From contig NZ_JAGIOS010000003.1 in the NCBI RefSeq assembly GCF_017876815.1, positions 480,001 through 512,000 of the forward strand: a stretch of 32,000 nucleotides of DNA. The letters are read 5' to 3'. Below are positions 15,728-31,272 of this stretch, in pieces. Position 1 is the stretch's first letter; every line of letters starts with the position of its first letter. Position numbers and translations under genes: made by a program. The notes beneath the pieces are model-generated. The model did no database searches and was not told where the DNA came from. It was given only the letters and a program-made list of their open reading frames with translations. Source of the stretch: Sinorhizobium meliloti. GTDB lineage: Bacteria > Pseudomonadota > Alphaproteobacteria > Rhizobiales > Rhizobiaceae.

Positions 15728-16279
15728 CTAGCCGGACGATCGCACCGTTCGGATCAGATCAGCGCAATTGGCCACGCTTAGCGCCTTGCGCAGTCGACCG
15801 ATATGGACGTTGACCGTTTGGCGTCAACGAAACGACGTTCGGGCCAGGCAGCTTCAATGAGTTGTGCGCGGCTGCACGCCTGCTCCCGGTTCTCCATCAG
15901 GAGCTGCAGCAACCGAAATTCGATCGGTCCTAAGTGAATGCTGACGCCGAAACGCTTGACGCTATGCCTGTTGGTGCTCAGTTCAATCCCTGCGCGAGGA
16001 TATGACCGTCGATCGCCGTGGGATGCGACCCGTGCAGGATGCGGTCACGGAGGAAGCCGAGCAGTTTCGAAGGAGCGATCGGCCTTACGAAGTTCTCGTC
16101 AATACCGCCTTCAGGTAGATCGATAAACCGGCATTCCGCACCAGGCCCAATCAAGCCGACCGTCGTGATCCCGAATGTCCGCGGCTCCTGCTTTAGCTTT
16201 ACACAAGTTGCAGGAGCCCACTCTTCTCCCGATCGACAATCAAGAAGGATGGCTCTGACATCGTTCTCGCCTGCGAGAT
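15728..16279 (-). pseudogene. OmpR/PhoB-type response regulator, distal part (rest of the receiver plus the winged-helix domain), separated from its 5' part by IS21 and also frameshifted
   Basis: ORF 15978..16559 contains GENDVRAILLDCRSGEEWAPATCVKLKQEPRTFGITTVGLIGPGAECRFIDLPEGGIDENFVRPIAPSKLLGFLRDRIL (receiver). Downstream come IHLGPIEFRLLQLLMENREQACSRAQLIEAAWPERRFVDAK and, in another frame, TVNVHIGRLRKALSVANCADLIRTVRSSG (winged helix). Confidence 0.7.
16272..16279. repeat. target-site duplication TGCGAGAT, left copy
   Basis: It lies immediately outside the IS21 left terminus (TGCAAATTCC... starts at 16280). An identical octamer flanks the right terminus. Confidence 0.8.
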
Positions 16280-16450
16280 TGCAAATTCCGAGGCAATCCG
16301 CCCCCTGATTCCGAAATGATCTCGCCCCCCAATTCCGAGAAATAGTCGCCCCCTGATTCCGAGATGATGCCGCCCCCATCGGAAAGCATCTGGCGTGGGT
16401 GTTCTGCTGGTGTGAAGTTTCTTCCTTCGACGTGACGAGGAAGGAACGGG

Positions 16451-18001
16451 ATGCCTGCGGAGAGACTGGAGATGCGGCGTGTCCGCGAGATATTGAGATA
16501 TCGCTTCGAACAAGGACTTGGCCACAAGTCGATCGCGGTTCGGGTTGGAGCTGCGCCATCGACGGTGCGCGAGACGCTTCGGCGTGCGGCCATTGCGGAG
16601 CTATCGTGGCCGTTGGGTGACGACATCAGCGATGCAGTCCTGGAAGCGGCGCTTTACAAGGCAGCCGGGACGAAGACGGGTCATCGTCGGAGCCCTGAGC
16701 CGGACTGGACGCAGGTCCACCGCGAGCTGAAGCGCAAGCATATGACGCTGCAGATCCTTTGGGACGAATACATCAGCCGTTATCCGGAGGGCTATCGTTA
16801 CAGTCGCTTCTGTGACCTCTACCGCGGCTGGGCGATGAAGTTGCCTGTGACGATGCGGCAGGATCACGCGGCCGGCGACAAGCTGTTCGTCGACTACGCC
16901 GGCGACACGGTCACGGTTGTCGTTGATCGGCTGTCCGGCAAGACACGGCAGGCGCACCTGTTCGTGGCGGTTCTGGGAGCATCCAGCCTTTCATATGCGC
17001 AGGCACGTTGGAGCGAGACGCTTCCCGACTGGATTGAATGCCATATCCTGGCGCTGGAGTTCTTTGGCGGTGCGCCAGCCTTGCTGGTTCCCGACAATGC
17101 CAAGGTAGCGATCATCAAGGCCTGCCACTTCGATCCCCAGGTCAACCGGACGTATTGCGGGATGGCGGCCCATTATGGCAGCGCCGTCTTGCCGACGCGG
17201 CCGCGACGCCCGCGGGACAAGGCGAAAGTGGAAGCTGCGGTTCGTATCGTCGAACGTTGGCTGTTGGGCCGGCTGCGCCATCGCATCTTCTATAGTTTGG
17301 CCGAGGTCAATGCGGCGATTGGCCAATTGCTCCATGATCTCAATGATAAGCGCGTTCTGCGCCGTGTCGGCGCCACGCGCCGCCAATTGTTCGAGGAGCT
17401 TGATCGTCCGGCTTTGCGACCGCTGCCTGTCGAACGTTATGTCTTTGCCGAATGGCGTATCCGGCGCGCCGGGCTGGATTATCACGTCGAGATCGAGCGG
17501 CACTATTATTCCGTTCCCTATCGCTTTGCCCGCGAGCAGGTCGAGGCTCGTATCACCGCCAATACGATCGAGATCTTCCACAAGGGCGAGCGAATTGCCG
17601 CTCACCGGCGCTCCAGCGGCAACGGCAAGCACACGACGATCCCCGATCATATGCCCTCTGCGCATCGCCGCTTTGCCGACTGGACGATTGAACGGATTCA
17701 ACGCGAAGCCTCTGCGATGGGGCCGGATGTTGCGCTGTTGTGCGAGCGCATTCTTGCCGACAGGCCTCATCCCGAGCAGGGCTTTCGAGCTTGCCTCGGC
17801 ATCATCCGCCTCAACAAGAGCTTCGGCCGCGACAGGGTCAATGCCGCTTGCGGCCGTGCGTTGGAGATTGGCGCACGAACCTATGGCTCGGTGCGATCCA
17901 TCCTCGACAATCACCTTGACCGGACGGCTGCCTCAAATGGAGCGGCGCCGCATGAACCGATCCATCACGCCAACATCCGCGGACCTCGCTATTACCACTA
18001 A
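16451..18001 (+). CDS. istA: IS21-family transposase IstA
   Basis: 516-aa ORF with an HTH N-terminus (MRRVREILRYRFEQGLGHKSIAVRVGAAPSTVRETLRR) and a DDE core (LFVDYAGDTV...VAVLGASSLSYAQ...LLVPDNAKVAI). Confidence 0.95.
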   Translation: MPAERLEMRRVREILRYRFEQGLGHKSIAVRVGAAPSTVRETLRRAAIAELSWPLGDDISDAVLEAALYKAAGTKTGHRRSPEPDWTQVHRELKRKHMTLQILWDEYISRYPEGYRYSRFCDLYRGWAMKLPVTMRQDHAAGDKLFVDYAGDTVTVVVDRLSGKTRQAHLFVAVLGASSLSYAQARWSETLPDWIECHILALEFFGGAPALLVPDNAKVAIIKACHFDPQVNRTYCGMAAHYGSAVLPTRPRRPRDKAKVEAAVRIVERWLLGRLRHRIFYSLAEVNAAIGQLLHDLNDKRVLRRVGATRRQLFEELDRPALRPLPVERYVFAEWRIRRAGLDYHVEIERHYYSVPYRFAREQVEARITANTIEIFHKGERIAAHRRSSGNGKHTTIPDHMPSAHRRFADWTIERIQREASAMGPDVALLCERILADRPHPEQGFRACLGIIRLNKSFGRDRVNAACGRALEIGARTYGSVRSILDNHLDRTAASNGAAPHEPIHHANIRGPRYYH

Positions 18002-18013
18002 GGAGAACGAAAG

Positions 18014-18751
18014 ATGCTTGCCCATCCAACACTGGATAAATTGAATGCCATGGGCCTGGCCGGCATGGCAAAGGCCTTTGGCGAACTTGTTGCCAACGGC
18101 GAAGCCGAACATCTCTCGCACGCCGAATGGCTCGGACTGCTGCTCGAACGGGAGTGGAGCTCCCGTTACGATCGGAAGCTTGCGGCACGCCTCAGGTTTG
18201 CCAAGCTTCGCCACCAGGCCACCCCAGAAGATGTCGACTATCGCGCCGACCGCGGCCTCGACCGTGCTCTCTTCATGAAGCTGCTCGGTGGCGACTGGAT
18301 CAACGCCCATGACAATCTGGCCATTTGCGGACCCTCGGGTGTCGGAAAGAGTTGGTTGGCTTGCGCTCTCGGCCACAAGGCTTGCCGAGACGATCGCTCA
18401 GTTCTCTATCAGCGTGTCCCAAGGCTGTTTGCCCAGCTTGCGCTCGCGCGTGGTGATGGCCGCTACGCCCGCCTGCAACGAACCTTGGGCCATGTTCAGC
18501 TCCTGATACTGGATGATTGGGGGCTCGAGCCGCTCAACGAACAGGCCCGCCACGACCTGCTGGAAATCCTCGAAGATCGCTATGGACGCAAATCAACGAT
18601 CATTACCAGCCAACTTCCCGTGTCCGCATGGCACGGCGTCATTGGCGACCCAACCTACGCCGATGCCATACTCGACAGGTTGGTCCACAATGCCCACCGC
18701 ATCGAATTGAGCGGCGATAGTCTGCGCCGAAATCTACCGCGCAAAGCTTGA
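18014..18751 (+). CDS. istB: IS21-family helper ATPase IstB
   Basis: 245-aa ORF with Walker A (CGPSGVGKSW) and Walker B (LLILDDWG). It starts 12 nt after the istA stop. Confidence 0.95.
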   Translation: MLAHPTLDKLNAMGLAGMAKAFGELVANGEAEHLSHAEWLGLLLEREWSSRYDRKLAARLRFAKLRHQATPEDVDYRADRGLDRALFMKLLGGDWINAHDNLAICGPSGVGKSWLACALGHKACRDDRSVLYQRVPRLFAQLALARGDGRYARLQRTLGHVQLLILDDWGLEPLNEQARHDLLEILEDRYGRKSTIITSQLPVSAWHGVIGDPTYADAILDRLVHNAHRIELSGDSLRRNLPRKA

Positions 18752-18877
18752 CACCTCGCCTGAATGAACTGACAACAATCATCGCCTGCAGACCCCACTA
18801 AACAGGGGGCGAGATCATCCCGGAAACCGGGGGCGCAATCATCTCGGAACAAAGGGGCGGCTTCATCGGAATCGGCA

Positions 18878-18885
18878 TGCGAGAT
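18878..18885. repeat. target-site duplication TGCGAGAT, right copy
   Basis: It lies immediately outside the IS21 right terminus (...ATCGGCA ends at 18877). Confidence 0.8.
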
Positions 18886-19013
18886 GGACGATTCCCCCAA
18901 CCCCCAGAACGAAGGATGACCTGATATCCCTCGGATTCTAGGATACGGATGACCAGCAGATAGTAATCCGCATCAATCGAGCCAATCAAGATCTGGGGCC
19001 GCGTTGGATTCAA
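18878..19013 (-). pseudogene. OmpR/PhoB-type response regulator, 5' part (start of the receiver domain)
   Basis: A TTG start at 19013 follows GGGGAGG. (M)NPTRPQILIGSIDADYYLLVIRILESEGYQVILRS... is a receiver-domain N-terminus. Removing the IS and one TSD copy joins ...GGIVHLA to GENDVRAILLD in one frame. Confidence 0.65.
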
Positions 19014-19155
19014 AGACCTCCCCTTTGGACTCCATGTCTGTTTCGGGCCGATCCCGAGCGAATTCGGGCGTCATTCTCTGCAGCGGCGCGGCCGTTAGGC
19101 CGGCCGACGGTGCAGCGACGACACTCCGCGCGGCGCCCCCGGTTGCCGGTATCTG

Positions 19156-19776
19156 TTAAACAGCGACGGTGTGGCGAGTCCCTGGTCGAGCGGCACCAGC
19201 GCGAATCCGATCAAGACTTCCGACATCGGCAGAAAGAATTCCGGCAACGGCCAACGAGTTGCCAATGGGGCACGGCGGGCCGAGGCGCTGCATCGGCCAC
19301 CCGGCACGCTTCAGAATGCGCTCGAAACGCAGATCAGTTGCGGTGACAATCTCGTGGTACCCGTTCGCCATCGACCATTCGATGATGCCGGCGAACATCA
19401 TCAGCGTGGTCTTGTGGAGAGGCCCTGGCGTTCTGTGCTGGTCGAGCGCAGTGTCGACACAAAAGCGCGAGCTTTCGACCATGCCTGGGTGAGCGTTCAA
19501 ACCGCGCGCTGGCAGGAGCTGCGGAAAGGTATTGGCGAGCATTGTCGGGCCTGTAGCTGGCAGAAGCCTTGCACAACCCGCCACCGCACCTGTGGGGGAA
19601 ACAGCTAGGATGTAGGTCGGGTCGAATTGATCGTAGGCGTCGGCTTCACGCCCGTCCCTTATCTCTACGTCCCAATCCAGCCTGTCGCCAAAGACGCAGG
19701 CACGCAGTCGGTGCATCGAATCAATTAGGTCAGCAAATTCTCCACGCGCCGCGGCCGGTACAGCCAGTATCTCCAT
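19156..19776 (-). CDS. acyl-homoserine-lactone synthase (LuxI family)
   Basis: The ORF track extends to 19917, but the family-typical start is ATG 19776. MEILAV...FADLIDSMHRLRACVFGDRLDWDVEIRDGREADAYDQFDPTYILAVSPTGAVAGCARLLPATGPTMLANTFPQLLP...VESSRFCVD...TATDLRFERILKRAGWPMQRLG carries the conserved LuxI blocks (206 aa). Confidence 0.9.
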   Translation of the reverse strand: MEILAVPAAARGEFADLIDSMHRLRACVFGDRLDWDVEIRDGREADAYDQFDPTYILAVSPTGAVAGCARLLPATGPTMLANTFPQLLPARGLNAHPGMVESSRFCVDTALDQHRTPGPLHKTTLMMFAGIIEWSMANGYHEIVTATDLRFERILKRAGWPMQRLGPPCPIGNSLAVAGILSADVGSLDRIRAGAARPGTRHTVAV

Positions 19777-19950
19777 CACCAATCTCCGAAGAAATCTCGC
19801 TCGTAGACTACTGAACACGAGTCTTGGCGCTCGGGCGACTAATAAAGTTAGTAGTCGAGTGTTTGACCGAAGCGTGCATGAATATCGCGGATATGAGTAG
19901 CTCGGAACGGAAGGCAATCAAGGACGAAGGTCAAAGGGAAAGGAAGTCGA

Positions 19951-20273
19951 TGTACAAGCACACCGCCGAAGCTCTCGTTTACGTAACGCACACCGATTGC
20001 GCCATAGAGAGCCTTTCTGTACGCCTCGGAAAGTATTGTGGAGCAATCAGGCACTTCGAGACCGGCAGGATACTCGACTTCGGCGAAGGTGAAGCGATCA
20101 TAAGATCGACTGAGGGCGCACTTTTGTTTCACGTCTCCGCACGAGACATCCTCACATTTTATGGCATTCAGGCGCTTTTGCAGGGGAGCCTGTCCGTCAT
20201 CGCGACGTTTCCTGGTGAAGCCGTCGAATGGCGCCCGGTGGACAGGGCGCCATTCGACCCTATGAGAGGATGA
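19951..20273 (+). CDS. small hypothetical protein divergent from luxI (possibly DUF2218-like)
   Basis: The ORF track starts at 19824. The internal ATG at 19951 follows GGAAAGGAAG. The 107-aa product is MYKHTAEALVYVTHTDCAIESLSVRLGKYCGAIRHFETGRILDFGEGEAIIRSTEGALLFHVSARDILTFYGIQALLQGSL...VEWRP. The family call comes from memory of the DUF2218 pattern and is weak. Confidence 0.5.
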
Positions 20274-20523: not shown

Positions 20524-21281
20524 ATGGCAGCAAACCGAAGCAGTCCACCGATGGTCGACAACCGTAGACTGTCATTGTCCCTGAGGACGCTGCAGTCAGC
20601 GAAGCACCGCCGGGACCTTCACCCTGCACTGGACGAGCTTTGCGCGCGATACGGCCTGTCGCATATGACATTCCTTGTGGTTTGCAGCGGAGGCAGGTCG
20701 GGTTTGTACCCCGATTACTGCACGACCTATCCCGGTAAGTGGACTGAGATATACGTAAACAAGCGTTATTTCGACATAGACCCGGTAATTGACGTCATTC
20801 GGTGGGATTTCTCCCGGTGGACTGGTCCTCTCTCGATCGGCGGTCAGCACAGGCGTACCGTTTATTTAAGGAAGCGCGTTCGTACGACATCGGGCCCCAT
20901 GGCTTGACGATCCCAATCCGAGGCTCGAAAGGCGAACGCTGCCTCTTTTCCGTGAGCTCGAACCTGCCCAAGCGCGATTGGTCGCGGCTACGCACTTCGA
21001 GCATTCACGAGCTGCAGATCCTTTCTCACTATCTTCATGAGACGACGCTTTCGGCCAGCGGTCTGCGAGAGGTCGGCCGTTATCGGACCCTCTCCAGGCG
21101 CGAAACTCAGTGCCTGCAGCTGCTTGCAACGGGCCGGATTTCCAAGCAGATAGCAGCGGACCTCGGCATCTCAGAAAACGCCGTGAAACTGTACCTGCGT
21201 TCGGCAAGGATCAAGCTGAATGCTGCTACAAGTTATCAGGCCGTCGCCAAGGCGAGCTTCCTCGAGTTAATCAAGTTCTGA
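20524..21281 (+). pseudogene. LuxR-family AHL-receptor gene interrupted by a single frameshift at about 20799-20805
   Basis: ORF 20524..20907 carries the autoinducer-binding N-terminal half (...TTYPGKWTEIYVNKRYFDIDPVIDVIR). ORF 20802..21281 continues in the -1 frame (GFLPVDWSSLDRRS...GLTIPIRGSKGERCLFSV...) through the C-terminal HTH (LSRRETQCLQLLATGRISKQIAADLGISENAVKLYLRSARIKL). Confidence 0.8.
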
Positions 21282-21341
21282 GCGCGCTCGATCGAGGATT
21301 CGGGACCTGTATGTCTCCATCCGGCTTTCCCGACAGCATCA

Positions 21342-21361
21342 ATCTACCGAATTCGGTAGAT
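21342..21361. promoter_or_regulatory. perfect 20-bp palindrome, candidate lux-box-type operator
   Basis: ATCTACCGAATTCGGTAGAT is perfectly self-complementary. It lies 60 bp after the luxR-type stop and about 125 bp upstream of the operon start (21483/21489). It has the length and dyad symmetry of LuxR-family boxes. Confidence 0.5.
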
Positions 21362-21482
21362 TGGCTGCCCGCTCGCAAGGGTCCACACATAGCAATCACA
21401 AACTCACGCACGGCAGGGGCTAGCGCAACCGAAACATCTCGCCGAGAGCCGAGATGAAGCGCACCGCCGATAATGTCGGGAG

Positions 21483-22556
21483 GTGGTTATGGTGAATCGA
21501 CTAACGATTGAACGCTGGCGAAACGCGCCCAGGCTTACATCGTTCGCAGCGTTCTTCGAAAGGACCGCCAGCGGACAGGGCGGAGCACCGGACCTTGCCG
21601 AACCTCAAATCGACATGAGCCTGCTCGATTTTGATCTGGAGAGCGCAGTTTTCGCGGATACGCATCGGCGTCTTTGGGGACACTTCGACAGCCATTACTT
21701 CGCCAGCATTCCCTATAGGCTCGAAGAGGAATGCCGCCTGGGTGCTGCGATACTTTCCCTCGGCCTGAGGGCCTGGGCACGCAGCGGCTCCCTAACGACA
21801 ATATACACGCTGGGCACAGGCACCGGTTGCTTTGCGCGCACGCTTGCCACGCTTGGCAATGGTCGCATCGAGGCGCTCTGCTGCAGTCCAACGGCAGCCA
21901 ATCGGACATCATTCCTTGCGAACCGGGGGAGCGAACACGCGCACTTCTTCCACGGCCCGTTCTTTGAGTTGGACGACGATCGATACGCGACCGACGAGGA
22001 TCTTCTCCCATTTCGGGACGGATTTGACGTGCTGTTGGAAGACACGACGTTTCAGATGTACGACCGTGACCGGCTAAAGCAGCTGGAGTTCGTCGTCCCC
22101 CGCATACGGCCTGGCGGTCTTCTCGTCCAGGTGCAGAAGCTCGCGCATGAAGACCGCGACGTCTATGAGGAGCGCGAACGACAGAAGGACGAGCTTTTTA
22201 AGTCCCGGTTCTTCTCGACCGGTCACATCTCCGAGAAAAAGGATGAAGTCCTGAACACGATGACGGATCTTCAAGTCGATGTGGCAACTACCGTAGCCGC
22301 TCTGGGAGCGTTTTTCCGATACTCAGTGCTAACCTGGAACAGCGGGAATTTCTACACAATCGTGTCATCCAACTCCCGGGCTTCCGTCTTGGAACTGATT
22401 TCGCTGATGTTAAAGCCCGCAATTCCACCAGCCTATTGTTACGAACATTTGCCAGCCGCTGTCGTCGATACGGAGGTGGAAGGGTTGGCTCCTGATTTGA
22501 CGTGGCGCAGGGCGAGTACCATGACGCTGCTCGCGCCCAGGCGCTTGGCATCGTGA
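21483..22556 (+). CDS. class I SAM-dependent methyltransferase-fold protein, CmoA-like layout
   Basis: 357-aa ORF. The probable start is ATG 21489, 5 nt after GGGAGG. It has motif I IYTLGTGTGCF, then VLLEDTTFQMYD and RIRPGGLLVQVQK. The tail FKSRFFSTGHISEKKDEVLNTMTDLQVDVATTVAALGAFFRYSVLTWNSGNFYTIVS parallels the CmoA tail [23 protein letters not shown]...FNFGSLVA. Confidence 0.8.
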   Translation: MVMVNRLTIERWRNAPRLTSFAAFFERTASGQGGAPDLAEPQIDMSLLDFDLESAVFADTHRRLWGHFDSHYFASIPYRLEEECRLGAAILSLGLRAWARSGSLTTIYTLGTGTGCFARTLATLGNGRIEALCCSPTAANRTSFLANRGSEHAHFFHGPFFELDDDRYATDEDLLPFRDGFDVLLEDTTFQMYDRDRLKQLEFVVPRIRPGGLLVQVQKLAHEDRDVYEERERQKDELFKSRFFSTGHISEKKDEVLNTMTDLQVDVATTVAALGAFFRYSVLTWNSGNFYTIVSSNSRASVLELISLMLKPAIPPAYCYEHLPAAVVDTEVEGLAPDLTWRRASTMTLLAPRRLAS

Positions 22557-22557
22557 A

Positions 22558-23964
22558 ATGGCGGCCACCCCAGAGGTCAGCGAGCATTGCAGCGCAGGCG
22601 ACGTGCGAAGCGCGCTGTCTGCCTTAATGCCGCATCTTACCTCCTATTGGGAGCGTCCCCTTCGAGATTACGCGTCGGTTGCCCACCACGTCGAGAAATT
22701 CCATTCCGAGTGTTGCGTGCGTCGTCATGCAATGGAGCTGCTCTGCCACTGCATAGAACGAGCGGGGCGCAAGTCCGGTTACGATCTTGAGGAAGCTCGA
22801 AGCGCCGGCCTTCAGTTGATGGCGTCGCCGGTACTGCAGACCGGTCCGCACTGCATGCTGCTGATCGAGCCGGATGCGTTCTACACGCATCTGTTCAGTC
22901 TGTTGGGCCTGTGCGCCAATAGCCGGCAATGGTACATCACGTATCACGCCTCGACAGTCAGCTTCTCGGAAAAATCAAAGAAAGGCCCCGGATGGCTCTG
23001 GCTTGAAGGCGAGCCCCTGAACGTCTTCGGCTTACCGCGGAGCCGGATGGATTCATTAAGCATCTGCGGTCTGAATGGTCCCTATCGCTTCGCTTTCTCG
23101 AATGCCAAAGGCGATCCGGCACCAAACGCCTCTGCCGTCCATCTCTTCGCCGAACTGCCGACGGTTGAATTTGCTTCTGCGGCCGACGCAATCAGGGCGG
23201 CCAACCAAACGCTTTGGCGTCGCAAGCTCCCCTCCCCCATCAGGCTACTTCAGCTCGATGATTTCGACATCGCAGACCTGGTCGCTGACCATCTCGACGA
23301 CCAAGAGTCCTGGATGTCGGCTCGTTTCTTCGGAGACAAGGTTGCCGAAAGCATCCTGGTTGCCATGGATCGCTTAAGCATTGGACCCTGGAAGGGTTGG
23401 GTCCGCAGGACGACCGATCTCTTCTGGCGGCTGGAAAAAGGCAGGGTTGTTCCGCTCCGGCTCCAGGAAAATGCCCTCAGGGCCGCGGCCCCGTCCGGTT
23501 TCGAATTGGAGTTCCGGCCGGATAATATCGCAGCGGGGCTTCGGCAACGAGCGATCGTGCCCAGCCTCTATACAGTGTTCCTAGTGACTTCCATTCTGCC
23601 CGGTGTGAGGGCACTTGGGGGATGTCGGCAGACCATCTACTACCCACTCATGCGCTATCTTACTGCGGTCGGCCTTGAGCAGTCGGGTAATTCCGATCTC
23701 TTGGCCGAACTGCGTGGGGACGACCGACCCGGGCTTTGGGGCCACCGTGTCCTGAAGCCCGCTGGCGGTTATCCATTCCAGGAGATCGGACTTTTCGGAC
23801 AAAGCCCGAGGTCCCTTTCAGAATACGCGCAGATCCCTTTGGTGCAGTCGAGCGGTGATCTAGGAAGTTTCACCGGGGATCCGATCTGGGCGAACCTGTC
23901 GAAGCAAATCGCCAGCGGTGTCATCAACTCGGGTTCCGTCGAGTGGCAGTGGTCGGGATCGTGA
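22558..23964 (+). CDS. hypothetical protein, no family recognised
   Basis: 468-aa ORF whose ATG lies 1 nt after the upstream stop (translational coupling). It has normal coding-like composition and a His/Cys-rich patch near the N-terminus (HHVEKFHSECCVRRHAMELLCHC). No recognisable catalytic motif, signal peptide or obvious transmembrane pattern, apart from one hydrophobic stretch (SLYTVFLVTSILPGV). Confidence 0.75.
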   Translation: MAATPEVSEHCSAGDVRSALSALMPHLTSYWERPLRDYASVAHHVEKFHSECCVRRHAMELLCHCIERAGRKSGYDLEEARSAGLQLMASPVLQTGPHCMLLIEPDAFYTHLFSLLGLCANSRQWYITYHASTVSFSEKSKKGPGWLWLEGEPLNVFGLPRSRMDSLSICGLNGPYRFAFSNAKGDPAPNASAVHLFAELPTVEFASAADAIRAANQTLWRRKLPSPIRLLQLDDFDIADLVADHLDDQESWMSARFFGDKVAESILVAMDRLSIGPWKGWVRRTTDLFWRLEKGRVVPLRLQENALRAAAPSGFELEFRPDNIAAGLRQRAIVPSLYTVFLVTSILPGVRALGGCRQTIYYPLMRYLTAVGLEQSGNSDLLAELRGDDRPGLWGHRVLKPAGGYPFQEIGLFGQSPRSLSEYAQIPLVQSSGDLGSFTGDPIWANLSKQIASGVINSGSVEWQWSGS

Positions 23965-23975
23965 GCAAGTGACGG

Positions 23976-24590
23976 ATGGCCGAGCGGCTTCGCTGCTGGA
24001 GCGTTTACATGCCATGCGATCAGATGCCCAGGTGGCGGGATACGGTGTTTCTCAGCCGGAACTTGGTGGAGGTCGATGTGTCGATTGAAGAAGGGGCGGT
24101 AATCAAGCGCCTATCAGTCGAGGACGTGGACGTGTTTCGCCGCATACGGCTGGAGGCGCTTTCACACGAACCGTTTTCGTTTGCGAGCGTATTTGACGAT
24201 TGGCTCCATCTCTCCGACCGTGAATGGCGCGAGCATCTTGACCAGCCAGTTTTTGTCGCGTTCCTGAACGGGCAGCCCGTCGGCATGATGGGGCTCAAGT
24301 TTGAGCGTGCGAGGAAAATGGTGCATCGCGCGAAGCTTGTCAGCGTCTATGTGCGGAAAGGCGAACGAGGGACCGGAATTGCAGCAAACCTTTTGCATAA
24401 CGTTACAGAGCATGCACGAGATCACGGAGTTCTGCAGTTGGAGCTTGCGGTAAATGCAGAAAATTCGGCAGCGATACGCTTCTATCAACGCCACGGTTTC
24501 GTCGAAGTTGGCCGCATTCCAAACGGCTGTCTTGGTCACGGTACGGAGAACGATGAGTTGATCATGGTACTCCGCTTGAATAATCGCTAG
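23976..24590 (+). CDS. GNAT-family N-acetyltransferase
   Basis: The GNAT core includes FVAFLNGQPVGMMGL, VYVRKGERGTGIAANLL (the acetyl-CoA Q/RxxGxG/A motif) and AIRFYQRHGFVEVG. The more likely start is the in-frame GTG at 24078, 5 nt after GGAGG (170 aa). Confidence 0.85.
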   Translation: MAERLRCWSVYMPCDQMPRWRDTVFLSRNLVEVDVSIEEGAVIKRLSVEDVDVFRRIRLEALSHEPFSFASVFDDWLHLSDREWREHLDQPVFVAFLNGQPVGMMGLKFERARKMVHRAKLVSVYVRKGERGTGIAANLLHNVTEHARDHGVLQLELAVNAENSAAIRFYQRHGFVEVGRIPNGCLGHGTENDELIMVLRLNNR

Positions 24591-24602
24591 GTTAATACCG
24601 GT

Positions 24603-24620
24603 AGCCGAAATATCGGCTTC
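24603..24620 (+). terminator. short hairpin after the GNAT gene (weak terminator candidate)
   Basis: AGCCGA-AATA-TCGGCT followed by TC, 13 nt after the stop. The stem is short and the T-tract is poor. Confidence 0.25.
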
Positions 24621-24979
24621 GTCCTTGGCCCCGAACGCGCCATTCGGCGATTGGGTTGGTGATGACCGCTTCGTCCCCGACGGAGCCTTCAGCGGAGGCG
24701 GTCCTGAACTTCCGCCCTCCACCCAAAAAAGAGGTCTGTGCCAGGAGGTATCAACGGCAGGTTTCACCACTAGAATCGACAAACCTCCCCTCGCTTGCGC
24801 AATGGAGAGGCCCAGTGCCTGACGCAATCTCGTAACTGTGCACGGCAAAACATGTGCCCGGTGGACGGATCAGGAAAACCGCTATTCCGCGGGGCAATTT
24901 GCTGATCAGGTTGCTGCCGACGTGCTCGGCCTGCGGAAGAGCGGTGACCTGTTCGGGCGATAAACGGCCTAGCCAGCTA

Positions 24980-25255
24980 CTATTTCTTGAAACGAACACC
25001 CACGCCGCCACCGTTTTCCGGAATGAACTCAATACCAGCGCCTTCGAGAGCAATTCGGATCAGCTTTAGATTTGCTGCCGTAATTGTCGGTGGCCCATCT
25101 TCTGCCTCCGCCCGTCGTATCGTCGAGAGACCCACACTAGCAGTACTTGCTAGCTCTTCGGCGCTCCATCGAACTAATGCCCTCGCCGCGCGAATTTGAG
25201 CACCCGTTATTACACTCATAAATTTCGGTTTTCCGGTTGAACTTTTTTCGTTCAT
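24980..25255 (-). CDS. XRE-family HTH transcriptional regulator
   Basis: MSVITGAQIRAARALVRWSAEELASTASVGLSTIRRAEAEDG...LKLIRIALEGAGIEFIPENGGGVGVRFKK is a small HTH family common in rhizobia. The start is ambiguous: ATG 25255 (MNEK...) or 25219 (MSVITG...). The track start at 25321 is unlikely. Confidence 0.75.
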   Translation of the reverse strand: MNEKSSTGKPKFMSVITGAQIRAARALVRWSAEELASTASVGLSTIRRAEAEDGPPTITAANLKLIRIALEGAGIEFIPENGGGVGVRFKK

Positions 25256-25344: not shown

Positions 25345-25902
25345 ATGGCTGATTCCGACAATAGCAGAACTGTGTCTACGGTCACCCGGGGAGATTTTCA
25401 ATCTTTCGTGGCGGCGTCTTTACCCACATATCAAGAGCTTACTCAGACGAAACAGCTATCCTGGGGTGCGTGCGATGCCGATCCGGCGCTCGTAGTTTGG
25501 CACCAATGGTGCGCCGCCTGGCAGCGTCTGAGCGAATCAAGTTTGCTACAACAGCGGCTCGAAAGATCCCTCTTTCCAGTGGTTTTGCCACCATCGGTTG
25601 AGCAAGCCGCAGGTTCTCGAACCTACTGCGAGGCCCTCGAAGCTGAAGATCGCGCATCCATCGCGGAGGAGCAGGCCGCGGAAACCTTGTGGAAGACGCC
25701 GGCGGTGTCCGTCGCAGGCGCCGCCGCCAAACTCCATGCCGCCATGACCAAATGGCAGCCCTCGCCCACAGGCCAAGAAGAGCCTTGGCCGCAAATCCGC
25801 ATCGTCATCGCCGACCTCCTGAAAATCGATATGGCCTCAGTTGCGAGCGGACGGGATTGCCTGTCTACGGCCGACCTCCGACCCGAGTTTCAAAGCAGCT
25901 GA
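25345..25902 (+). CDS. hypothetical protein divergent from the XRE gene
   Basis: ATG 25345 follows GGGAG. The 185-aa product contains DPALVVWHQWCAAWQRLSESSLLQQRLERSL...CEALEAEDRASIAEEQAAETLWKTPAVSVAGAAAKLHA...EEPWPQIRIVIADLLKI. This resembles uncharacterised rhizobial plasmid proteins I recall. The function is unknown. Confidence 0.5.
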   Translation: MADSDNSRTVSTVTRGDFQSFVAASLPTYQELTQTKQLSWGACDADPALVVWHQWCAAWQRLSESSLLQQRLERSLFPVVLPPSVEQAAGSRTYCEALEAEDRASIAEEQAAETLWKTPAVSVAGAAAKLHAAMTKWQPSPTGQEEPWPQIRIVIADLLKIDMASVASGRDCLSTADLRPEFQSS

Positions 25903-26061
25903 ACGGACGGTGGCAGAGTACGCGGGATTCCGGCCTTTCCTTCAATTTCACATGACATGCGCACCGCGCCTTTGCATGCATTTCGCCGTGGGAGCACCGC
26001 GTTGGGACTGCTTCCAATGCGGCGTTCCGACTCTACCAAAAACTAAAACAAGGAACTTCAA

Positions 26062-27657
26062 ATGAAACTGGGAAGCCCATTTCGGCCACGCCTGCTTTCC
26101 GCGCTTCTGTTCTCCATCTTCCTCGGGAGTGCTTCGGCGACGCCGGCGCAAGAACGCGGAGAGCTTCGGATCGCTACATCGTACAAGCTGATGACGCTGG
26201 ATCCGCAATATGCCAATCTCAACGAGAACACCTCACTGCTCTCCCATATTTACGAGCGGCTCGTCTACCAGGACGAGAATCTCGAATTGAAGCCTGGGCT
26301 CGCCACCTCCTGGCGGCCACTGTCCGACACGCAATGGGCGTTCAAGCTCCGTGACAAGGTCCGCTTCCATGACGGCTCGGCCTTTGACGCCGATGATGTC
26401 GTCTACACGATCGAGCGCATCCGGGACTTCCTCAAACCGCCGAGCGGCGGCTTTCGCTCCTATGTCAGCGGCATCAAGTCGGTCTCGGCACCCGATCCCC
26501 TCACAGTGCTGATCGAAACCGACGGCGCGGTCCCCAATCTGCCACTCTTCTTCTCCTCCCTCTTCGTGATGAACCGGCCCTCTGAGGGGGTCGAGACGAC
26601 CGAGGACCTCAACGCGGGTCACCCGCCCAACGGCACTGGACCCTATCGGTTCGAGAGCTGGAGTTCCGGCGAGAGCCTGAGACTTGCCCGGAACGACGAC
26701 TACTGGGGCGGCAAACCTGCCTGGTCCAAGGTTACCTTCCGGGTGATCGAGAACCCGGCAGCGCGCGTGGCGGCGCTCAGCACGGGAGAGGTCGATGTGG
26801 CCGACGCGATCCCGGCCCGCGACGTTGCCTCCTTGAAGGAGCGCGGCGCCAGGGTCGCGAGCGTCGGTGCTGCACGTGTCAACTTCGTACAGTTCGACGT
26901 CGCGCGAGACACGCTTCCAGGAGTGACTGACAAGTCGGGCGAACCGATCGCCAATCCGTTCAAGAACCCGCTCGTGCGCCGAGCGCTTGCGCTGGCGACT
27001 GACCGGGGCATTCTCGTCGACAAGATTCTCGCCGGTTATGGCACGGCCGCCGCCCAGGTCTTTCCGAATGGTCTGCCGGGCACCTCGGCGAAATTGCTGC
27101 CTGAGGCTCCAAACTATGACGAAGCAAAGATGCTTCTCGCGAAGGCCGGTTTCCCGGACGGCTTCAACCTTGTTCTTGCCGGGCCGGCGGGCCGTTACCC
27201 CGGTGACGCCGAAAGCCTTCAGGCAGTCGCCCAGAGCTGGGCCCGCATCGGCGTCAATGCTCAACCAGCGGCCGCGCCTTTCTCGGTATTCAACACCAAG
27301 CGGGCGGCAGGGGATTACGGCGTCTGGTACGGCGGCACCTCCGGCGAGGCGGTCGACATCATTCTCCATACTCTGCTGGCATCCCCGGACCCAGAGCGCG
27401 GGACCGGTGCGTTGAACTTCGGGAAGTATCGCAACGAGGCCTTCGACGCGATGCTCGCAAGGGCGGAAAGCATTGCGGTAGGGCCGGAGCGCAATGCGGC
27501 ACTCGCGCAGGCGACGGAACTCGTGATGGCCGACCAGCCGATCATACCGCTCTACCACTTCCATCACATCGTCGGTTACGGCTCGCGGATCGGCTCCTAT
27601 GTCCTGCACCCCCGCGGCTGGACAACCGCGATGCAGACGCTTCCGGCGATGGAGTAA
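26062..27657 (+). CDS. ABC transporter substrate-binding protein, family 5 (peptide/nickel, DppA/OppA-like)
   Basis: 531-aa ORF with a signal peptide (LLSALLFSIFLGSASATPAQ) and SBP_bac_5-type blocks (LVYQDENLELKPGLATSW...WAFKLRDKVRFHDGSAFDADDVVYTIER). Confidence 0.9.
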   Translation: MKLGSPFRPRLLSALLFSIFLGSASATPAQERGELRIATSYKLMTLDPQYANLNENTSLLSHIYERLVYQDENLELKPGLATSWRPLSDTQWAFKLRDKVRFHDGSAFDADDVVYTIERIRDFLKPPSGGFRSYVSGIKSVSAPDPLTVLIETDGAVPNLPLFFSSLFVMNRPSEGVETTEDLNAGHPPNGTGPYRFESWSSGESLRLARNDDYWGGKPAWSKVTFRVIENPAARVAALSTGEVDVADAIPARDVASLKERGARVASVGAARVNFVQFDVARDTLPGVTDKSGEPIANPFKNPLVRRALALATDRGILVDKILAGYGTAAAQVFPNGLPGTSAKLLPEAPNYDEAKMLLAKAGFPDGFNLVLAGPAGRYPGDAESLQAVAQSWARIGVNAQPAAAPFSVFNTKRAAGDYGVWYGGTSGEAVDIILHTLLASPDPERGTGALNFGKYRNEAFDAMLARAESIAVGPERNAALAQATELVMADQPIIPLYHFHHIVGYGSRIGSYVLHPRGWTTAMQTLPAME

Positions 27658-27663
27658 GCGGTC

Positions 27664-28641
27664 ATGGGCATGATCTCGGTTGCATTGGGAAGGCTGGGCC
27701 AAGCCTTCCTGCTCCTCATCGCCATGTCGTTGATCGGCTTTATCGGCATCCACAGCGTCGGCAATCCGGTCTTCAACGTCGTCAACATCGAAACAGCTAC
27801 GCCCGAGGATATTCACGCCGCAACGATCGCGCTCGGTCTTGATCAGCCGATCTGGCGCCAATACCTCGCATTCATCGGCAATGTCGTCAGCGGCAACTTC
27901 GGCACCTCCTACATCTATCATCTGCCCGCCTTCGAGTTGGTGATGAGCAAACTGCCGGCAACGCTTGAGCTCGCCTCCATCGCGATGCTGATCGCCGCAC
28001 CGCTCGGGACGGGACTCGGACTCCTTGCCGGCCGACGCAGCGGCACGCTGTTCGACAGAACCCTGGTCAAGGCGAGCGTGTCGGCGCTGAGCATCCCTTC
28101 CTTCTGGCTGGCGATGATGCTGATCCTCGTCGGCGCTATCCTGACCGGCTGGTTCCCGTCCGGCGGCCGCGGCTTGACTGCGAGCTTCCTGGGTCAGGAA
28201 TGGAGTTTTCTGACTGCAAATGGATTATGGCACCTCGTGCTTCCGGCCTTGGCACTGGCGATACCGAACATCGCTCTGATTGCCCGCCTATCGCGATCGG
28301 GAACAATCGAAGTCGAGAACCTGGATTACACAAGGTTTTGCCGCGCCAAGGGGCTTTCCGCGCGAAGGATCCTGTTCCGCCACACCCTTCCGAACATCAG
28401 CGTGCCGATCGTGACGATCATCGGACTGCAGTTCGGCGGCATGCTCGCCTTTGCCGTGGTGGTGGAAACGATCTTTTCGTGGCCGGGCGTCGGCAAGCTT
28501 CTGATCGACTCCATCCAGCTCCTCGACCGGCCAGTGGTGATGGCGACGCTGACCGTCATTGCCGTCGCCTTCGTCGCGCTGAATGCCCTCGTCGACTTGT
28601 TCTATGCCGTGCTCGACCCGCGCGTGCGCCTGTCTTCATGA
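27664..28641 (+). CDS. ABC transporter permease (DppB/OppB-like)
   Basis: 325-aa multi-transmembrane ORF with the EAA-loop region (ARAKGLSARRILFRHTLPN). Confidence 0.9.
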   Translation: MGMISVALGRLGQAFLLLIAMSLIGFIGIHSVGNPVFNVVNIETATPEDIHAATIALGLDQPIWRQYLAFIGNVVSGNFGTSYIYHLPAFELVMSKLPATLELASIAMLIAAPLGTGLGLLAGRRSGTLFDRTLVKASVSALSIPSFWLAMMLILVGAILTGWFPSGGRGLTASFLGQEWSFLTANGLWHLVLPALALAIPNIALIARLSRSGTIEVENLDYTRFCRAKGLSARRILFRHTLPNISVPIVTIIGLQFGGMLAFAVVVETIFSWPGVGKLLIDSIQLLDRPVVMATLTVIAVAFVALNALVDLFYAVLDPRVRLSS

Positions 28642-28654
28642 AAGGTGACCCGTC

Positions 28655-29530
28655 ATGAAAGCCCACATCGTAAGCGCGCTGAAGAGGCGCCGACACGGAC
28701 CGGTGCTGACCGCGTCCAAGCTGCTGCTGGCAAGCTACATCCTGATTGCCATCGCTGCACCCTTGATCGCGCCGCAAAATCCCTATGACCCGCTGCAGAT
28801 CTACGGCTGGGAGGCGTCCTCGCCACCCGGTACACGTGGCAGCGGCGGCTATCTCTACCTGCTTGGAACCGACGGTCTCGGCCGAGACATCGTCAGCACC
28901 ATTCTCTACGGCCTGCGCATCAGCCTGGTGGTGTCGATCGTCAGTAGCGCGCTCGCCGCGCTGATCGGGCTGACCGCCGGCGTCAGTGCCGCGTATTTCG
29001 GGAAATGGGTCGACATCGCGATCATGCGGCTGGTCGACCTGCAGCTCAGCCTGCCGACGATCCTGATTGCGCTCATCGCCATCGTCACGCTCGGGCCGGG
29101 CATAGACCGGATCATCCTGGCGTTGATCATCGCGCAATGGGCGACCTATGCCCGGATCGCCCGCGGCGTCGCACTCAGCGAAGCGAACAAGCCTTACATG
29201 GATGCGGCCCGCTTGATGCGGCTGCCAACGTCCCGGATCATCGTCCGGCACCTGCTTCCGAACAGCATCGCGCCCGCCGTCACCTTGATACCGATCGAGG
29301 TCGGCCATGCCGTCGCACTCGAGGCGACCCTCTCCTTTCTTGGGCTGGGCGTCCCGATCGACAAGCCCTCGCTCGGCTCGGCGGTCGCAAACGGATTCCA
29401 GTACCTCCTGACCGGCCAATACTGGATCAGCCTGTTCCCGGGCCTCGCCCTCTTCGGCCTGATCGCCAGCATCAATCTCGTCGGCGAAGACGTTCGCCGC
29501 AGCCTCGATCCAAGGAACCATTCGCGATGA
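28655..29530 (+). CDS. ABC transporter permease (DppC/OppC-like)
   Basis: 291-aa ORF with LGTDGLGRDIVSTILYG and an EAA-type loop (YMDAARLMRLPTSRIIVRHLLPN). Confidence 0.9.
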   Translation: MKAHIVSALKRRRHGPVLTASKLLLASYILIAIAAPLIAPQNPYDPLQIYGWEASSPPGTRGSGGYLYLLGTDGLGRDIVSTILYGLRISLVVSIVSSALAALIGLTAGVSAAYFGKWVDIAIMRLVDLQLSLPTILIALIAIVTLGPGIDRIILALIIAQWATYARIARGVALSEANKPYMDAARLMRLPTSRIIVRHLLPNSIAPAVTLIPIEVGHAVALEATLSFLGLGVPIDKPSLGSAVANGFQYLLTGQYWISLFPGLALFGLIASINLVGEDVRRSLDPRNHSR

Positions 29531-31185
29531 CCGTGGAACACGTGACGACACCCCTGCTGCGGGTTGAGAACCTTGGCCTTCGCCATGTCTCGGGCTCGGC
29601 CACAACACAAATCCTGTCCGACGTGAGTTTCGAACTCGGGCGAGGCGAGATCCTCGGCATCATCGGCGAGTCCGGCGCCGGCAAATCGACCGTCGGCAAT
29701 GCCATCCTCGGGCTGCTTTCGCCCGAGTTCCAGCAGACCTCCGGAACAATCGAGTTCGATGGCAAGGCGATCGACGGGATGACTGCCGACGAGCGCCAGA
29801 CGCTTCGAGGACGGCGGATATCGGCGATCTTCCAGGACCACACCGCCTCGCTCGATCCGCTGATGAGCGTCGGCGCCCAAGTCGAGGAAACCTGCCTTGC
29901 GCTCGACAGCTCGCTTTCCAGGCGCGAGGCGCGTGCCCGCGCGGTTGATCTGCTTGCCCGCGTCGGCATTCCCGAACCGGAGCAGCGATACCGCAATTAC
30001 CCGCACCAGTTCTCCGGCGGGCAGAGGCAACGCGTCGTCATCGCCATTGCGCTTGCCGGCTCTCCTGACATCATCATCGCCGACGAGCCGACCTCGGCGC
30101 TCGATGCGACGGTTCAGAAGCAGGTTCTGGAACTTCTAAAGATACTTGTCGACGAAACCGGTGTCTCGATCATCCTCGTCACCCACGACATGGGCGTGAT
30201 CTCCGAAATCACCAACCGGGTACTCGTCATGCGAAAGGGCCAGGTGGTGGAGGCGGACCGCACGACCGCCATTCTCGATCAGCCCGGCCATGACTACACG
30301 AAGAAGCTGCTCGCCGCTGTTCCAAGGCTTCGAATCCCGACACGCATTGATAGCGGCCAAGCAGGCTCTTCCGCCCTAGACGGCGACCAGAACCCGCTTC
30401 TGGTCGCGGAAGGCCTTTCGAAACAGTTCGCGCCGCAGGGTTTTGCCTGGGGCGTCGGCCGGGGCAAGCCGAGATTCGGCCTGCGCGACGTCGGTATTCG
30501 CCTGGCGCGCGGGTCGATCACCGGGATCGTCGGCGAGAGCGGCAGTGGAAAGACGACGTTCGGCCGCATCCTCGCGGGCCTCGACAAGGCGCCGACCGGC
30601 AGGATCACAATCGGGGAACACGCCTTCGACGTTTCGCGAAGCGGCCGCCGCAGCGGTCTTCTCGGCCGCGTCCAGATGATCTTCCAGGATCCATCCGTCT
30701 CCCTCAACCCCCGCATGACCATCGGCGAGACGCTGGACGAGAGCATCCGCTTCGGCGGGAGGATCCGTTCCGGCGAAGAGCCGGCGGAAGTGGCCGCAAT
30801 GATGGATCGGCTTGGTCTTCCGCGAAGCCTGCTCGCCCGCCATCCGCATCAGCTCTCCGGTGGCCAAAAGCAGCGTGTCTGTATCGCTCGCGCCCTGTTG
30901 GCACGGCCTGAGATCATCGTCGCGGACGAGCCGACATCCGCGCTCGACGTCTCGGTTCAGGCCGAGATCGTCGGTCTCCTGAAGGACACCATAGCGGAGC
31001 GGGCGATGACAATGGTCTTCATCTCCCATGACCTCGCGATCGTTCAAGCGATGTGCAGCTCCGTCTACATCTTCAAGGACGGCCGGATCGAGGATTTCGG
31101 GCCCACCGAGTTCATCTTCTCGCGATCCGACAATCCCTACACCCGCGCGCTCATCAACGCCCGCCCCCAGCGGTTCACATGCTGA
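29527..31185 (+). CDS. fused double ATP-binding protein of the ABC importer (DppD/DppF-like)
   Basis: The start ATG at 29527 overlaps the upstream stop (ATGA). There are two complete cassettes: GESGAGKST...FSGGQRQR...[11 protein letters not shown] and GESGSGKTT...LSGGQKQR...[11 protein letters not shown]. The 726-aa track ORF from 29005 is an out-of-context N-terminal extension over the permease gene. Confidence 0.9.
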
Positions 31186-31272
31186 GCGGCGCGGCACGCC
31201 TCACCGACAGCATCCAGGCAGGATCTGCCAAATTTTCGAAACGCACACGCATTGCCACAGAAGGTCACCCAA

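Follow-up and report, generated by a model that had tools for sequence, protein, structure and literature searches.

We analyzed a 32,000-nt stretch of Sinorhizobium meliloti DNA (hereafter, the window; contig NZ_JAGIOS010000003.1, positions 480,001 to 512,000), which belongs to a pSymA-type megaplasmid, and centered the analysis on a gene at 22558–23964 of its plus strand that encodes a 468-residue protein of an unnamed family. The protein is, with good confidence, a very distant structural relative of the Rossmann-like domain of BshC, the enzyme that adds cysteine in bacillithiol synthesis. Its gene lies in a cassette whose order (a LuxR-type regulator gene, a 24-bp box, a methyltransferase gene, the 468-residue protein gene, and a GNAT acetyltransferase gene) is conserved on conjugative Rhizobiaceae plasmids, usually beside tra or acyl-homoserine-lactone (AHL) synthase genes. 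We propose, with roughly even confidence, that the 468-residue protein is the catalytic core of a quorum-controlled operon, consisting of the methyltransferase gene, its own gene and the GNAT gene, that makes an amino-acid-derived metabolite by BshC-like, ligase-type chemistry. The BshC-like fold, of the HUP class, is already known; the genomic setting of this family is undescribed yet widespread.

The cassette and its surroundings comprise the following features, with the evidence for each in brackets (ORF, open reading frame; SAM, S-adenosylmethionine; dN/dS, ratio of nonsynonymous to synonymous substitution rates):

12926–13627, minus strand: second LuxR-type regulator, intact (Autoind_bind and GerE; 22% identity to the cassette LuxR)
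19210–19776, minus strand: traI, AHL synthase (Pfam Autoind_synth, 2e-60; annotated traI in the related plasmid of ml66, L001)
20551–21281, plus strand: LuxR-family, AHL-type regulator, frameshifted (Autoind_bind and GerE, split over two ORFs)
21340–21363, no strand: 24-bp perfect palindrome with the arms CAATCTACCGAA and TTCGGTAGATTG, candidate lux-type box (repeat search)
21489–22556, plus strand: class I SAM-dependent methyltransferase-fold enzyme of 355 residues, CmoA/CysG/BelI-like (weak NCBIfam CmoA match, Foldseek)
22558–23964, plus strand: 468-residue protein of an unnamed family, BshC-like Rossmann-type fold (ORF, homologues, AlphaFold2, Foldseek, hhalign, dN/dS)
23976–24590, plus strand: GNAT N-acetyltransferase of 204 residues (Pfam Acetyltransf_1, 2e-19; PDB entry 1yr0, 3e-10)

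The gene at 22558–23964 is a true gene and not a chance ORF. Its frame translates from an ATG into 468 residues and begins one base (A22557) after the TGA (22554–22556) that ends the upstream frame; coordinates and translation thus agree with a first-pass annotation made from the DNA alone, which had described a clean ORF joined to a SAM enzyme gene by a one-nucleotide junction, and each of the three peptide stretches quoted there occurs in the translation. A homology search recovered 330 close homologues, none of them named, and a profile search for the family returned 668 clusters at 50% identity, mostly of 400–500 residues. Comparison with eight orthologues gave dN/dS values of 0.10–0.28, indicating purifying selection, and the gene is intact across about 50 related loci. 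Because codons 13–58 are likewise constrained, we favor the 468-residue start over the 409–411-residue calls found in some records. The region 21400–24700 is 100% identical to strains SM11 and RU11/001 and 98% identical to annotated strains, which label the three genes as a class I SAM-dependent methyltransferase, a hypothetical protein, and a GNAT family N-acetyltransferase.

An unnamed family with a BshC-like predicted fold

Searches of the 468-residue protein against Pfam and NCBIfam gave nothing at E ≤ 0.01, and Pfam gave nothing even at E ≤ 10. PADLOC returned no match for it, leaving an anti-phage defence role, one of the candidates considered, without support from that source. Searches of the PDB with the single sequence and with profiles of 33 and 71 family members found nothing meaningful, and repeating the homology search with the wider profile recovered the same close Rhizobiales relatives and no new names. 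Isolated Pfam matches did appear among the 33- and 71-member sets (best E 0.004), each family in just one member. The first-pass view that the protein has no recognisable family therefore stands for sequence, as judged by Pfam, NCBIfam, PADLOC and the PDB, and falls for the fold, which marks the protein as a distant relative of BshC and of the class-I aminoacyl-tRNA synthetase (aaRS)-type HUP enzymes.

Conservation was assessed in a close alignment of 33 relatives (52–82% identity) and in a wide one of 71 members (17–55% identity). The family motifs are QTGPH (ending at H98), KKGPGW (141–146), LLQLDDFD (230–237), TD-x-FW (286–290), SILPG-x-R-x-LGGCRQ-x-x-Y (345–361), and WGHRV (394–398). H98 does not vary in the close set and occurs in 68 of the 71 members of the wide set, bearing out an earlier impression that the block around it, PVLQTGPH, is conserved. 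In the wide alignment G143, G355 and Y361 are invariant and G354 and P348 almost so; the hydrophobic, glycine-containing segment that had been noted at SILPG...GG...Y, with G354, G355 and Y361, is accordingly a true family motif. The N-terminal His/Cys cluster fared differently. Its best-kept positions, H57, C65 and C52, are present in 23, 21 and 17 of the 33 close relatives, respectively; at H43 and H44 most relatives have Y and D, at C53 most have S, and at both C63 and H64 most have R; no position of the cluster is retained across the 71-member alignment. We therefore dropped the reading of these residues as a possible metal site. A membrane role for the glycine segment was also rejected, because a single 19-residue window was borderline hydrophobic, the segment was confidently modelled as helix-strand-helix (block-mean predicted local distance difference test (pLDDT) scores of ~85–97), and it pairs with the conserved PTLAF-x-GPGE-x-x-YW stretch of BshC.

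An AlphaFold2 model built on the 33-sequence alignment had a mean pLDDT of 86.6 and a predicted template-modelling (TM) score of 0.90. When this model was compared with the PDB using Foldseek, the sole match at E ≤ 0.001 was BshC of Bacillus subtilis (4wbd; E 9.7e-6, probability 1.00, TM-scores 0.45/0.40, 10% identity). Class-I LysRS followed as a weaker neighbour (probability 0.8), and TyrRS, TrpRS, ArgRS, cyclodipeptide synthase and NAD synthetases appeared at E > 1 with probabilities of at most 0.08; all of these neighbours are nucleotide-using enzymes of the Rossmann-like HUP class. As a comparison independent of the structure model, we aligned the 71-member family profile with a profile of six BshC members using hhalign; the six were a BshC sequence confirmed against 4wbd_A and five further BshC genes from plasmid and chromid records. 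The match (P = E = 0.0012, probability 19%) was colinear over residues 203–371 of the family and 205–366 of BshC, and at low stringency it extended colinearly to 16–452 against 6–458. In this alignment G354, G355 and Y361 land on the invariant G350/P351/Y356 of BshC, the family pattern SILP-x2-R-x2-GG-x2-Q-x2-Y falls on the invariant PTLAF-x-GPGE-x2-YW, and the preceding beta-rich insertion aligns as well. A BshC-type Rossmann-like core is thus present in a predicted model, as distinct from an experimental structure, and is found by both Foldseek and hhalign.

The two families nonetheless differ in ways that place the 468-residue protein outside the BshC family. A true BshC, that of B. velezensis, scored 9.3e-137 with PF10079 and 3.4e-46 with PF24850 in our hands, whereas PF10079 (Rossmann-like_BshC) and PF24850 (CC_BshC) are silent on the 468-residue protein. 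Of the three BshC motifs, GPGE-x2-Y has a clear counterpart in LGG-x2-Q-x2-Y361, GGQQAG-x3-GP aligns to QTGPH with differing residues, among them the near-invariant His, and W-x-A-x2-DHD has no recognisable equivalent. The C-terminal coiled-coil dimerisation domain of BshC (PF24850, ~160 residues) gave no match, about 90 residues with short helices only (379–464) following the Rossmann-like part. Neither a bshA-like glycosyltransferase gene nor a bshB-like deacetylase gene was found among the ORFs scanned over ~9–32 kb of the window or in the annotated related loci. Our BshC sequences are from Bacillota and Deinococcus; the 468-residue family was found in alpha-proteobacterial plasmids and metagenomes. 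It is the lack of the coiled coil, of clear counterparts to GGQQAG and AGEDHD, and of bshA/bshB company, together with a near-invariant His at the place of the HIGH motif, that sets the protein apart. What the two share is a hydrophobic strand followed by G-G/P-x-E/Q-x-x-Y (345–361, against 341–356 in BshC) after a similar beta-rich insertion, a profile alignment that is colinear through the whole Rossmann-like domain, and N-modifying partners in their respective pathways.

The position of that His also invites comparison with MshC and the class-I aaRS-type ligases. In the model and the alignment H98 lies in the loop following the first strand of the Rossmann-like core, the site of the HIGH or (T/H)xGH motifs in the HUP superclass. 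Neither HIGH/KMSKS nor (T/H)xGH/ISxxxxR is present in the 468-residue protein, which has a lone near-invariant H98 (TGPH) at the HIGH place and no KMSKS-like motif where one would be expected; it also differs from these ligases in having no anticodon-binding domain and no detectable sequence similarity to them. The likeness is one of catalytic fold, with class-I LysRS a weak and TyrRS, TrpRS and ArgRS non-significant Foldseek neighbours, and of pathway logic: in mycothiol synthesis a ligase (MshC) is followed by a GNAT (MshD) that acetylates the new alpha-amine, an order that can be likened to that of the cassette.

These comparisons bring the protein close to a characterised family by way of the BshC fold without placing it fully there, because the BshC reaction itself has never been reconstituted in vitro (PMC5790435). 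The analogy to BshC would fix the fold and the probable class of chemistry, and not the substrate.

A conserved cassette on conjugative plasmids

The enzyme encoded directly upstream had been called a SAM enzyme in the first-pass annotation, and both its AlphaFold2 model (pLDDT 91.9, with database homologues in the alignment) and Foldseek confirm a class I methyltransferase fold, excluding radical SAM identity. Its start is the ATG at 21489 behind GGAGG and not the GTG at 21483, the Shine–Dalgarno sequence and the MVD start being conserved. The best structural matches are to CysG/BelI and to CmoA, the carboxy-SAM synthase (E ~2e-9), and on related plasmids the gene is annotated as a class I SAM methyltransferase. 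In the making of cystargolide and belactosin, CysG and BelI serve as carboxyl O-methyltransferases (PMC11408123, PMC10776993). With these fold neighbours, a relationship to the bacillithiol N-methyltransferase NmbA finds no support. We also rejected a leader or precursor peptide 5′ of the methyltransferase: a 13-codon upstream ORF (MKRTADNVGRWLW, 21454–21495) that overlaps the methyltransferase start shows no conservation, even with the closest strain, and is probably meaningless.

The GNAT gene begins 11 nt downstream of the 468-residue protein gene. Its product gave RimI-, ArsN1- and phosphinothricin (PPT) acetyltransferase-type NCBIfam matches under the cut-off and a weak match to MshD (9e-4), and it is nearest to N-acetyltransferases of the phosphinothricin and methionine-sulfoximine type (1yr0 is a phosphinothricin acetyltransferase), which acetylate the alpha-amine of free amino-acid analogues.

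We examined the linkage of these genes over 52 loci from species-representative genomes, all from Rhizobiaceae, Phyllobacteriaceae and relatives, with four plasmid loci (L001, L002, L004 and L005) counted apart. The methyltransferase gene lies directly 5′ of the 468-residue protein gene in 51 of the 52, separated by −8 to +1 nt in 23 and by no more than 45 nt in all 49 with a placeable start. A LuxR gene directly precedes the methyltransferase gene in 39 genome loci and in L001, L002 and L005, a GNAT gene follows the 468-residue protein gene in 26 genome loci and in all four plasmid loci, and an SBP_bac_5 ATP-binding cassette (ABC) importer lies downstream in 29 genome loci. The methyltransferase and the 468-residue protein thus form an invariant core to which GNAT and LuxR are optional additions, which makes the earlier suggestion of a core enzyme a reasonable one, and homologues are clearly not confined to isolated genes.

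The transfer genes of the host plasmids are often close at hand. In a dozen genome loci traA-traF-traB-traH stand immediately upstream, as in Agrobacterium vitis F2/5, where the order is traAFBH, LuxR, methyltransferase, 468-residue protein homologue, GNAT. On A. tumefaciens pAtCFBP5877a (L004) an AHL synthase gene overlaps the methyltransferase gene, resulting in a single operon of luxI, methyltransferase, homologue and GNAT genes. Among 145 plasmids with a homologue, 121 are predicted to be conjugative. A sister subfamily with ~42% identity, found on R. etli p42d and many R. phaseoli symbiotic plasmids, is arranged otherwise, with a divergent methyltransferase gene and an operon of AraC, major facilitator superfamily (MFS) and homologue genes; here the homologue gene overlaps that of the MFS exporter, which takes the place of GNAT.

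The palindrome at 21340–21363 lies 125 nt 5′ of the methyltransferase ATG and is a candidate for a new type of lux operator. Its pattern, CAAYYT-N12-ARRTTG, occurs once in the window; 43 loci (41 from genomes, plus L001 and L005) have it at the equivalent position, a 44th (L002) is assigned by position, and substitutions across loci are mirrored between its arms. Four loci that have no upstream LuxR gene carry the pattern ~7.5 kb downstream of the 468-residue protein gene, two of them beside luxI.

The LuxR gene next to the palindrome has lost 1 nt near 20803 in comparison to the intact 243-residue copy in ml66 and is probably a pseudogene in the window. The deleted (131-nt) version is common to SM11 and RU11/001 only, the other S. 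meliloti plasmids listed having the 132-nt form. In an alignment to RhlR, QscR and TraR the intact orthologue has W, Y, D, P, W and G at the canonical positions of the AHL pocket. The cassette LuxR is more similar to RhlR, QscR and the PA1136 family than to TraR of pTi. The AHL synthase gene traI lies ~1.7 kb upstream of the methyltransferase start. Because a conserved dyad, an adjacent AHL-type LuxR gene and a nearby traI occur together, the cassette looks like a direct quorum-sensing target, as far as its anatomy tells; dyad, regulator and synthase are features expected of a quorum-sensing regulon, with the LuxR gene present here as a frameshifted copy. The operon may be silent in this strain, or may rely on another LuxR such as that encoded at 12926–13627, which could stand in for the frameshifted regulator. 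Divergent from traI is a gene at 19950–20273 (plus strand) for a conjugal-transfer regulator of the SMa0974 family (RctB-like), whose stop codon falls 11 codons before that of the 119-residue ml66 orthologue.

This arrangement resembles the LuxR/lux-box operons of other rhizobial plasmids, such as rhiABC of R. leguminosarum and the TraR/tra-box operons, in its adjacent AHL-type LuxR gene, its upstream dyad and its tra and AHL-synthase neighbours. It differs from them in that its putative 24-bp operator is of its own type and its cargo genes are unrelated. None of the RcgA/RcgR, CinX, AvhR or BisR contexts described in the literature matches the cassette. Full-text term searches of rhizobial plasmid quorum-sensing papers, LuxR-solo surveys and RcgA/RcgR work on the plasmid group of the window found no mention of the 468-residue family or of the cassette, and a literature search gave the same result.

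Proposed function and competing explanations

The company kept by more distant members of the family bears on what the protein might do. We traced fourteen distant relatives to contigs or plasmid records, here identified by locus. Exporter genes of the MFS_3 type adjoin or overlap five of them (L058, L060, L063, L064 and L078). Genes for ATP-grasp L-amino-acid ligases (L063, L077, L078), TauD dioxygenases (L060, L076, L078), racemases (L067, L078) and aminotransferases (L064, L067, L074, L076) lie beside others, as do a non-ribosomal peptide synthetase (NRPS) module (L076), an S66 peptidase (L067), and methyltransferases or GNAT (P0146, L073). These neighbours are typical company for builders of small, exported, amino-acid-derived natural products. 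In one distant branch of the family the homologue begins directly next to a 59-codon ORF (L078, 6822–7001; L079, 3104–3283), within a cluster of MFS, ATP-grasp, small ORF, homologue, TauD and Asp/Glu-racemase genes; it could encode a carrier or precursor peptide.

In the mechanism that we propose, the operon would be transcribed from a promoter with the 24-bp dyad, presumably bound by the adjacent AHL-type LuxR, and synthesis of the product would accompany plasmid-transfer functions when donor density is high. The 468-residue protein would catalyze a nucleotide-dependent group transfer or ligation in which a carboxylate, either an amino acid or an amino-acid-like acid, is activated and then coupled to an acceptor amine or hydroxyl. 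A carboxyl-linked group would be added, or activated, by the CmoA/CysG-like SAM enzyme. N-acetylation of a free alpha-amino group would fall to GNAT, either to complete the tailoring or to confer self-protection; in the sister subfamily the MFS exporter replaces GNAT. The whole pathway would consist of two to three enzymes.

Several observations weigh against this proposal. By sequence the protein falls in no enzyme family, and PF10079 is as silent on its 71 relatives as on the protein itself; the hhalign probability of 19% and the global TM-scores are modest; and GGQQAG, AGEDHD and the C-terminal coiled-coil domain of BshC have no clear counterpart. Even a protein that works like BshC would have its chemistry left unfixed, given that the BshC reaction awaits reconstitution (PMC5790435). 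The cassette LuxR gene is frameshifted in this very strain, a simple sigma-70 consensus scan gave no promoter (the promoter and terminator scan was uninformative), and the neighbouring genes for an importer, CapA and peptidase T would suit a catabolic or detoxifying role equally well.

The last point concerns a module downstream of the cassette, whose features are as follows, the importer and CapA genes having been identified by domain searches:

24983–25219, minus strand: small helix-turn-helix (HTH) regulator, divergent from the transport module and conserved beside the cassette
25345–32000, plus strand: downstream module, its last gene cut by the window end
25345–25902, plus strand: 185-residue protein with no Pfam match (domain scan)
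26062–31185, plus strand: SBP_bac_5 ABC importer of the peptide/opine/nickel type
31273–32000, plus strand: CapA-family (PGA_cap) gene, cut by the window end

In seven genome loci and in L001 the ABC operon ends with a CapA orthologue, and in L001 the peptidase T gene, PepT, follows. An orthologue also occurs near the homologue in loci of the R. etli p42d type, with 48% identity between the subfamilies, and the presence of CapA in both hints at a functional link to the cassette. The importer module is linked to the cassette in many loci and may be connected to it functionally. An explanation built on these genes is that the cassette serves processing and not synthesis: together with the importer, CapA and peptidase T it would act on a peptide-like compound or antimetabolite taken up from outside, modifying, detoxifying or catabolising it, with GNAT as the detoxifying step and the 468-residue protein as an accessory of the hydrolase or transferase type. 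The affinity of GNAT to the phosphinothricin- and methionine-sulfoximine-detoxifying acetyltransferases, the importer downstream in 29 of the 52 genome loci, the recurrence of CapA, and PepT in L001 all fit this account. We nonetheless consider it unlikely. Distant relatives are flanked by MFS_3 exporters and biosynthetic enzymes (ATP-grasp, NRPS, TauD, racemases) and not by importers, the gene of the sister subfamily overlaps that of an MFS exporter, and the importer module, ~750 nt from GNAT, has a divergent HTH regulator of its own.

The setting among transfer genes raises another alternative, namely that the cassette is concerned with signal chemistry. It would either alter the AHL of the plasmid or produce an additional signal, other than an AHL, by which conjugative transfer is tuned. 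In favor of this are the luxI-containing operon of pAtCFBP5877a, the location of the cassette between traAFBH or traI and other transfer regulators, the 121 of 145 homologue-bearing plasmids predicted to be conjugative, and the fact that synthases of the LuxI type also have a GNAT fold and use SAM. Signal chemistry is a poor fit, though, to an adjacent LuxR that has all canonical AHL-pocket residues and so requires no new ligand, to an R. etli-type subfamily that is controlled by AraC and has neither luxI nor luxR, and to distant relatives that lack any quorum-sensing context; literature searches also gave no link. On balance we regard it as quite improbable.

Much less credible is a true analogue of BshC that would produce a low-molecular-weight thiol by ligating cysteine to an amine scaffold, to be followed by N-acetylation or N-methylation. 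The fold does resemble that of BshC, a ligase with a GNAT parallels MshC and MshD, and the GNAT has its weak MshD match. A ligase paired with a SAM methyltransferase likewise parallels BshC and NmbA, which N-methylates bacillithiol to N-methyl-bacillithiol (PMC12719100). The scanned ORFs and annotated related loci provide no BshA-like glycosyltransferase or BshB-like deacetylase, however, the methyltransferase resembles CysG/CmoA and not the thiol N-methyltransferases, and quorum control on an accessory plasmid would be odd for a redox buffer. Rhizobia, moreover, use glutathione. Equally hard to credit is a protein without enzymatic activity that has an old fold in common with BshC and serves plasmid transfer as a scaffold or regulator: the gene does lie in a transfer-regulation region, and BshC itself has no demonstrated in vitro activity (PMC5790435), but H98, D234/D235, R351, G354/G355, Q358, Y361 and WGHRV are conserved and cluster as in an active site, pairing with the SAM enzyme is obligate, and relatives occur inside biosynthetic clusters far from conjugation genes.

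Returning to the proposed biosynthetic operon, we can tentatively extend it. It is conceivable, if doubtful, that the protein represents a new class of ligase-type enzyme that shares ancestry with BshC and builds a plasmid-encoded, quorum-triggered, secreted antimetabolite or bacteriocin-like "Trojan-horse" compound, with protection by GNAT or MFS and uptake through the peptide-type ABC importer. A comparable system is the microcin C (mcc) operon, which includes MccD (a SAM enzyme), MccE (a GNAT), MccC (an MFS exporter) and MccF (an S66 peptidase), with uptake by YejABEF; agrocin 84 of Agrobacterium was likewise compared. Like these loci, the cassette would combine a core enzyme of nucleotide chemistry, a SAM-fold tailoring enzyme, and GNAT or MFS as alternative means of immunity, with a peptide-type ABC importer and a peptidase nearby; an S66 peptidase gene adjoins one distant relative, and CmoA-like enzymes occur in mcc-like clusters. 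The likeness is one of gene logic, and there are differences: MccB is ThiF/E1-like and unrelated to the 468-residue protein, and the cassette has no conserved precursor-peptide ORF upstream. If this extension were true, conjugative and symbiotic plasmids could penalise or signal to plasmid-free neighbours when transfer is induced, and the reaction could bring to light how BshC works and which activated substrate, long missing, it uses.

The proposed biosynthetic operon would itself have consequences. A family of at least 668 clusters, recurrent in biosynthetic loci for small peptides and without a name in Pfam, NCBIfam or the literature, would obtain both a fold assignment and a chemistry that can be tested. 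A divergent sister family of BshC with only two partner enzymes would offer a second, simpler route to a mechanism that has resisted reconstitution for over a decade. More than 100 conjugative plasmids of Rhizobium, Sinorhizobium and Agrobacterium, including symbiotic megaplasmids, would be seen to hold a quorum-regulated cargo operon with its own operator beside their transfer genes, and what this operon makes could prove to be a new factor in how bacteria compete in the rhizosphere or in how plasmid transfer is controlled. The gene is of interest less for its architecture, which is not exotic, than as a clean and testable way into an unnamed family, into how BshC works, and into a quorum-regulated cargo that symbiotic and Ti/At-type plasmids carry and that has been overlooked.

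Insertion sequences and other ORFs of the window

An IS21-family element at 16451–18751 (istA, 16451–18001; istB, 18014–18751) splits a response-regulator gene, the flanks of which lie at 15731–16286 and 18826–19035 on the minus strand. The same gene is intact beside traI in ml66; in the window its downstream part is also frame-broken. At lower coordinates, two tandem paralogous ORFs on the plus strand (9230–10609 and 10969–12396) have winged-helix N-termini of the HTH_29–HTH_32 type. In ml66 the annotation gives an ISNCY-family transposase for a gene at a comparable position upstream of the second LuxR-type gene, and its correspondence to the ORFs at 9230–12396 is putative. With its IS21 element and these possible ISNCY transposases, the region is an insertion-sequence hotspot.

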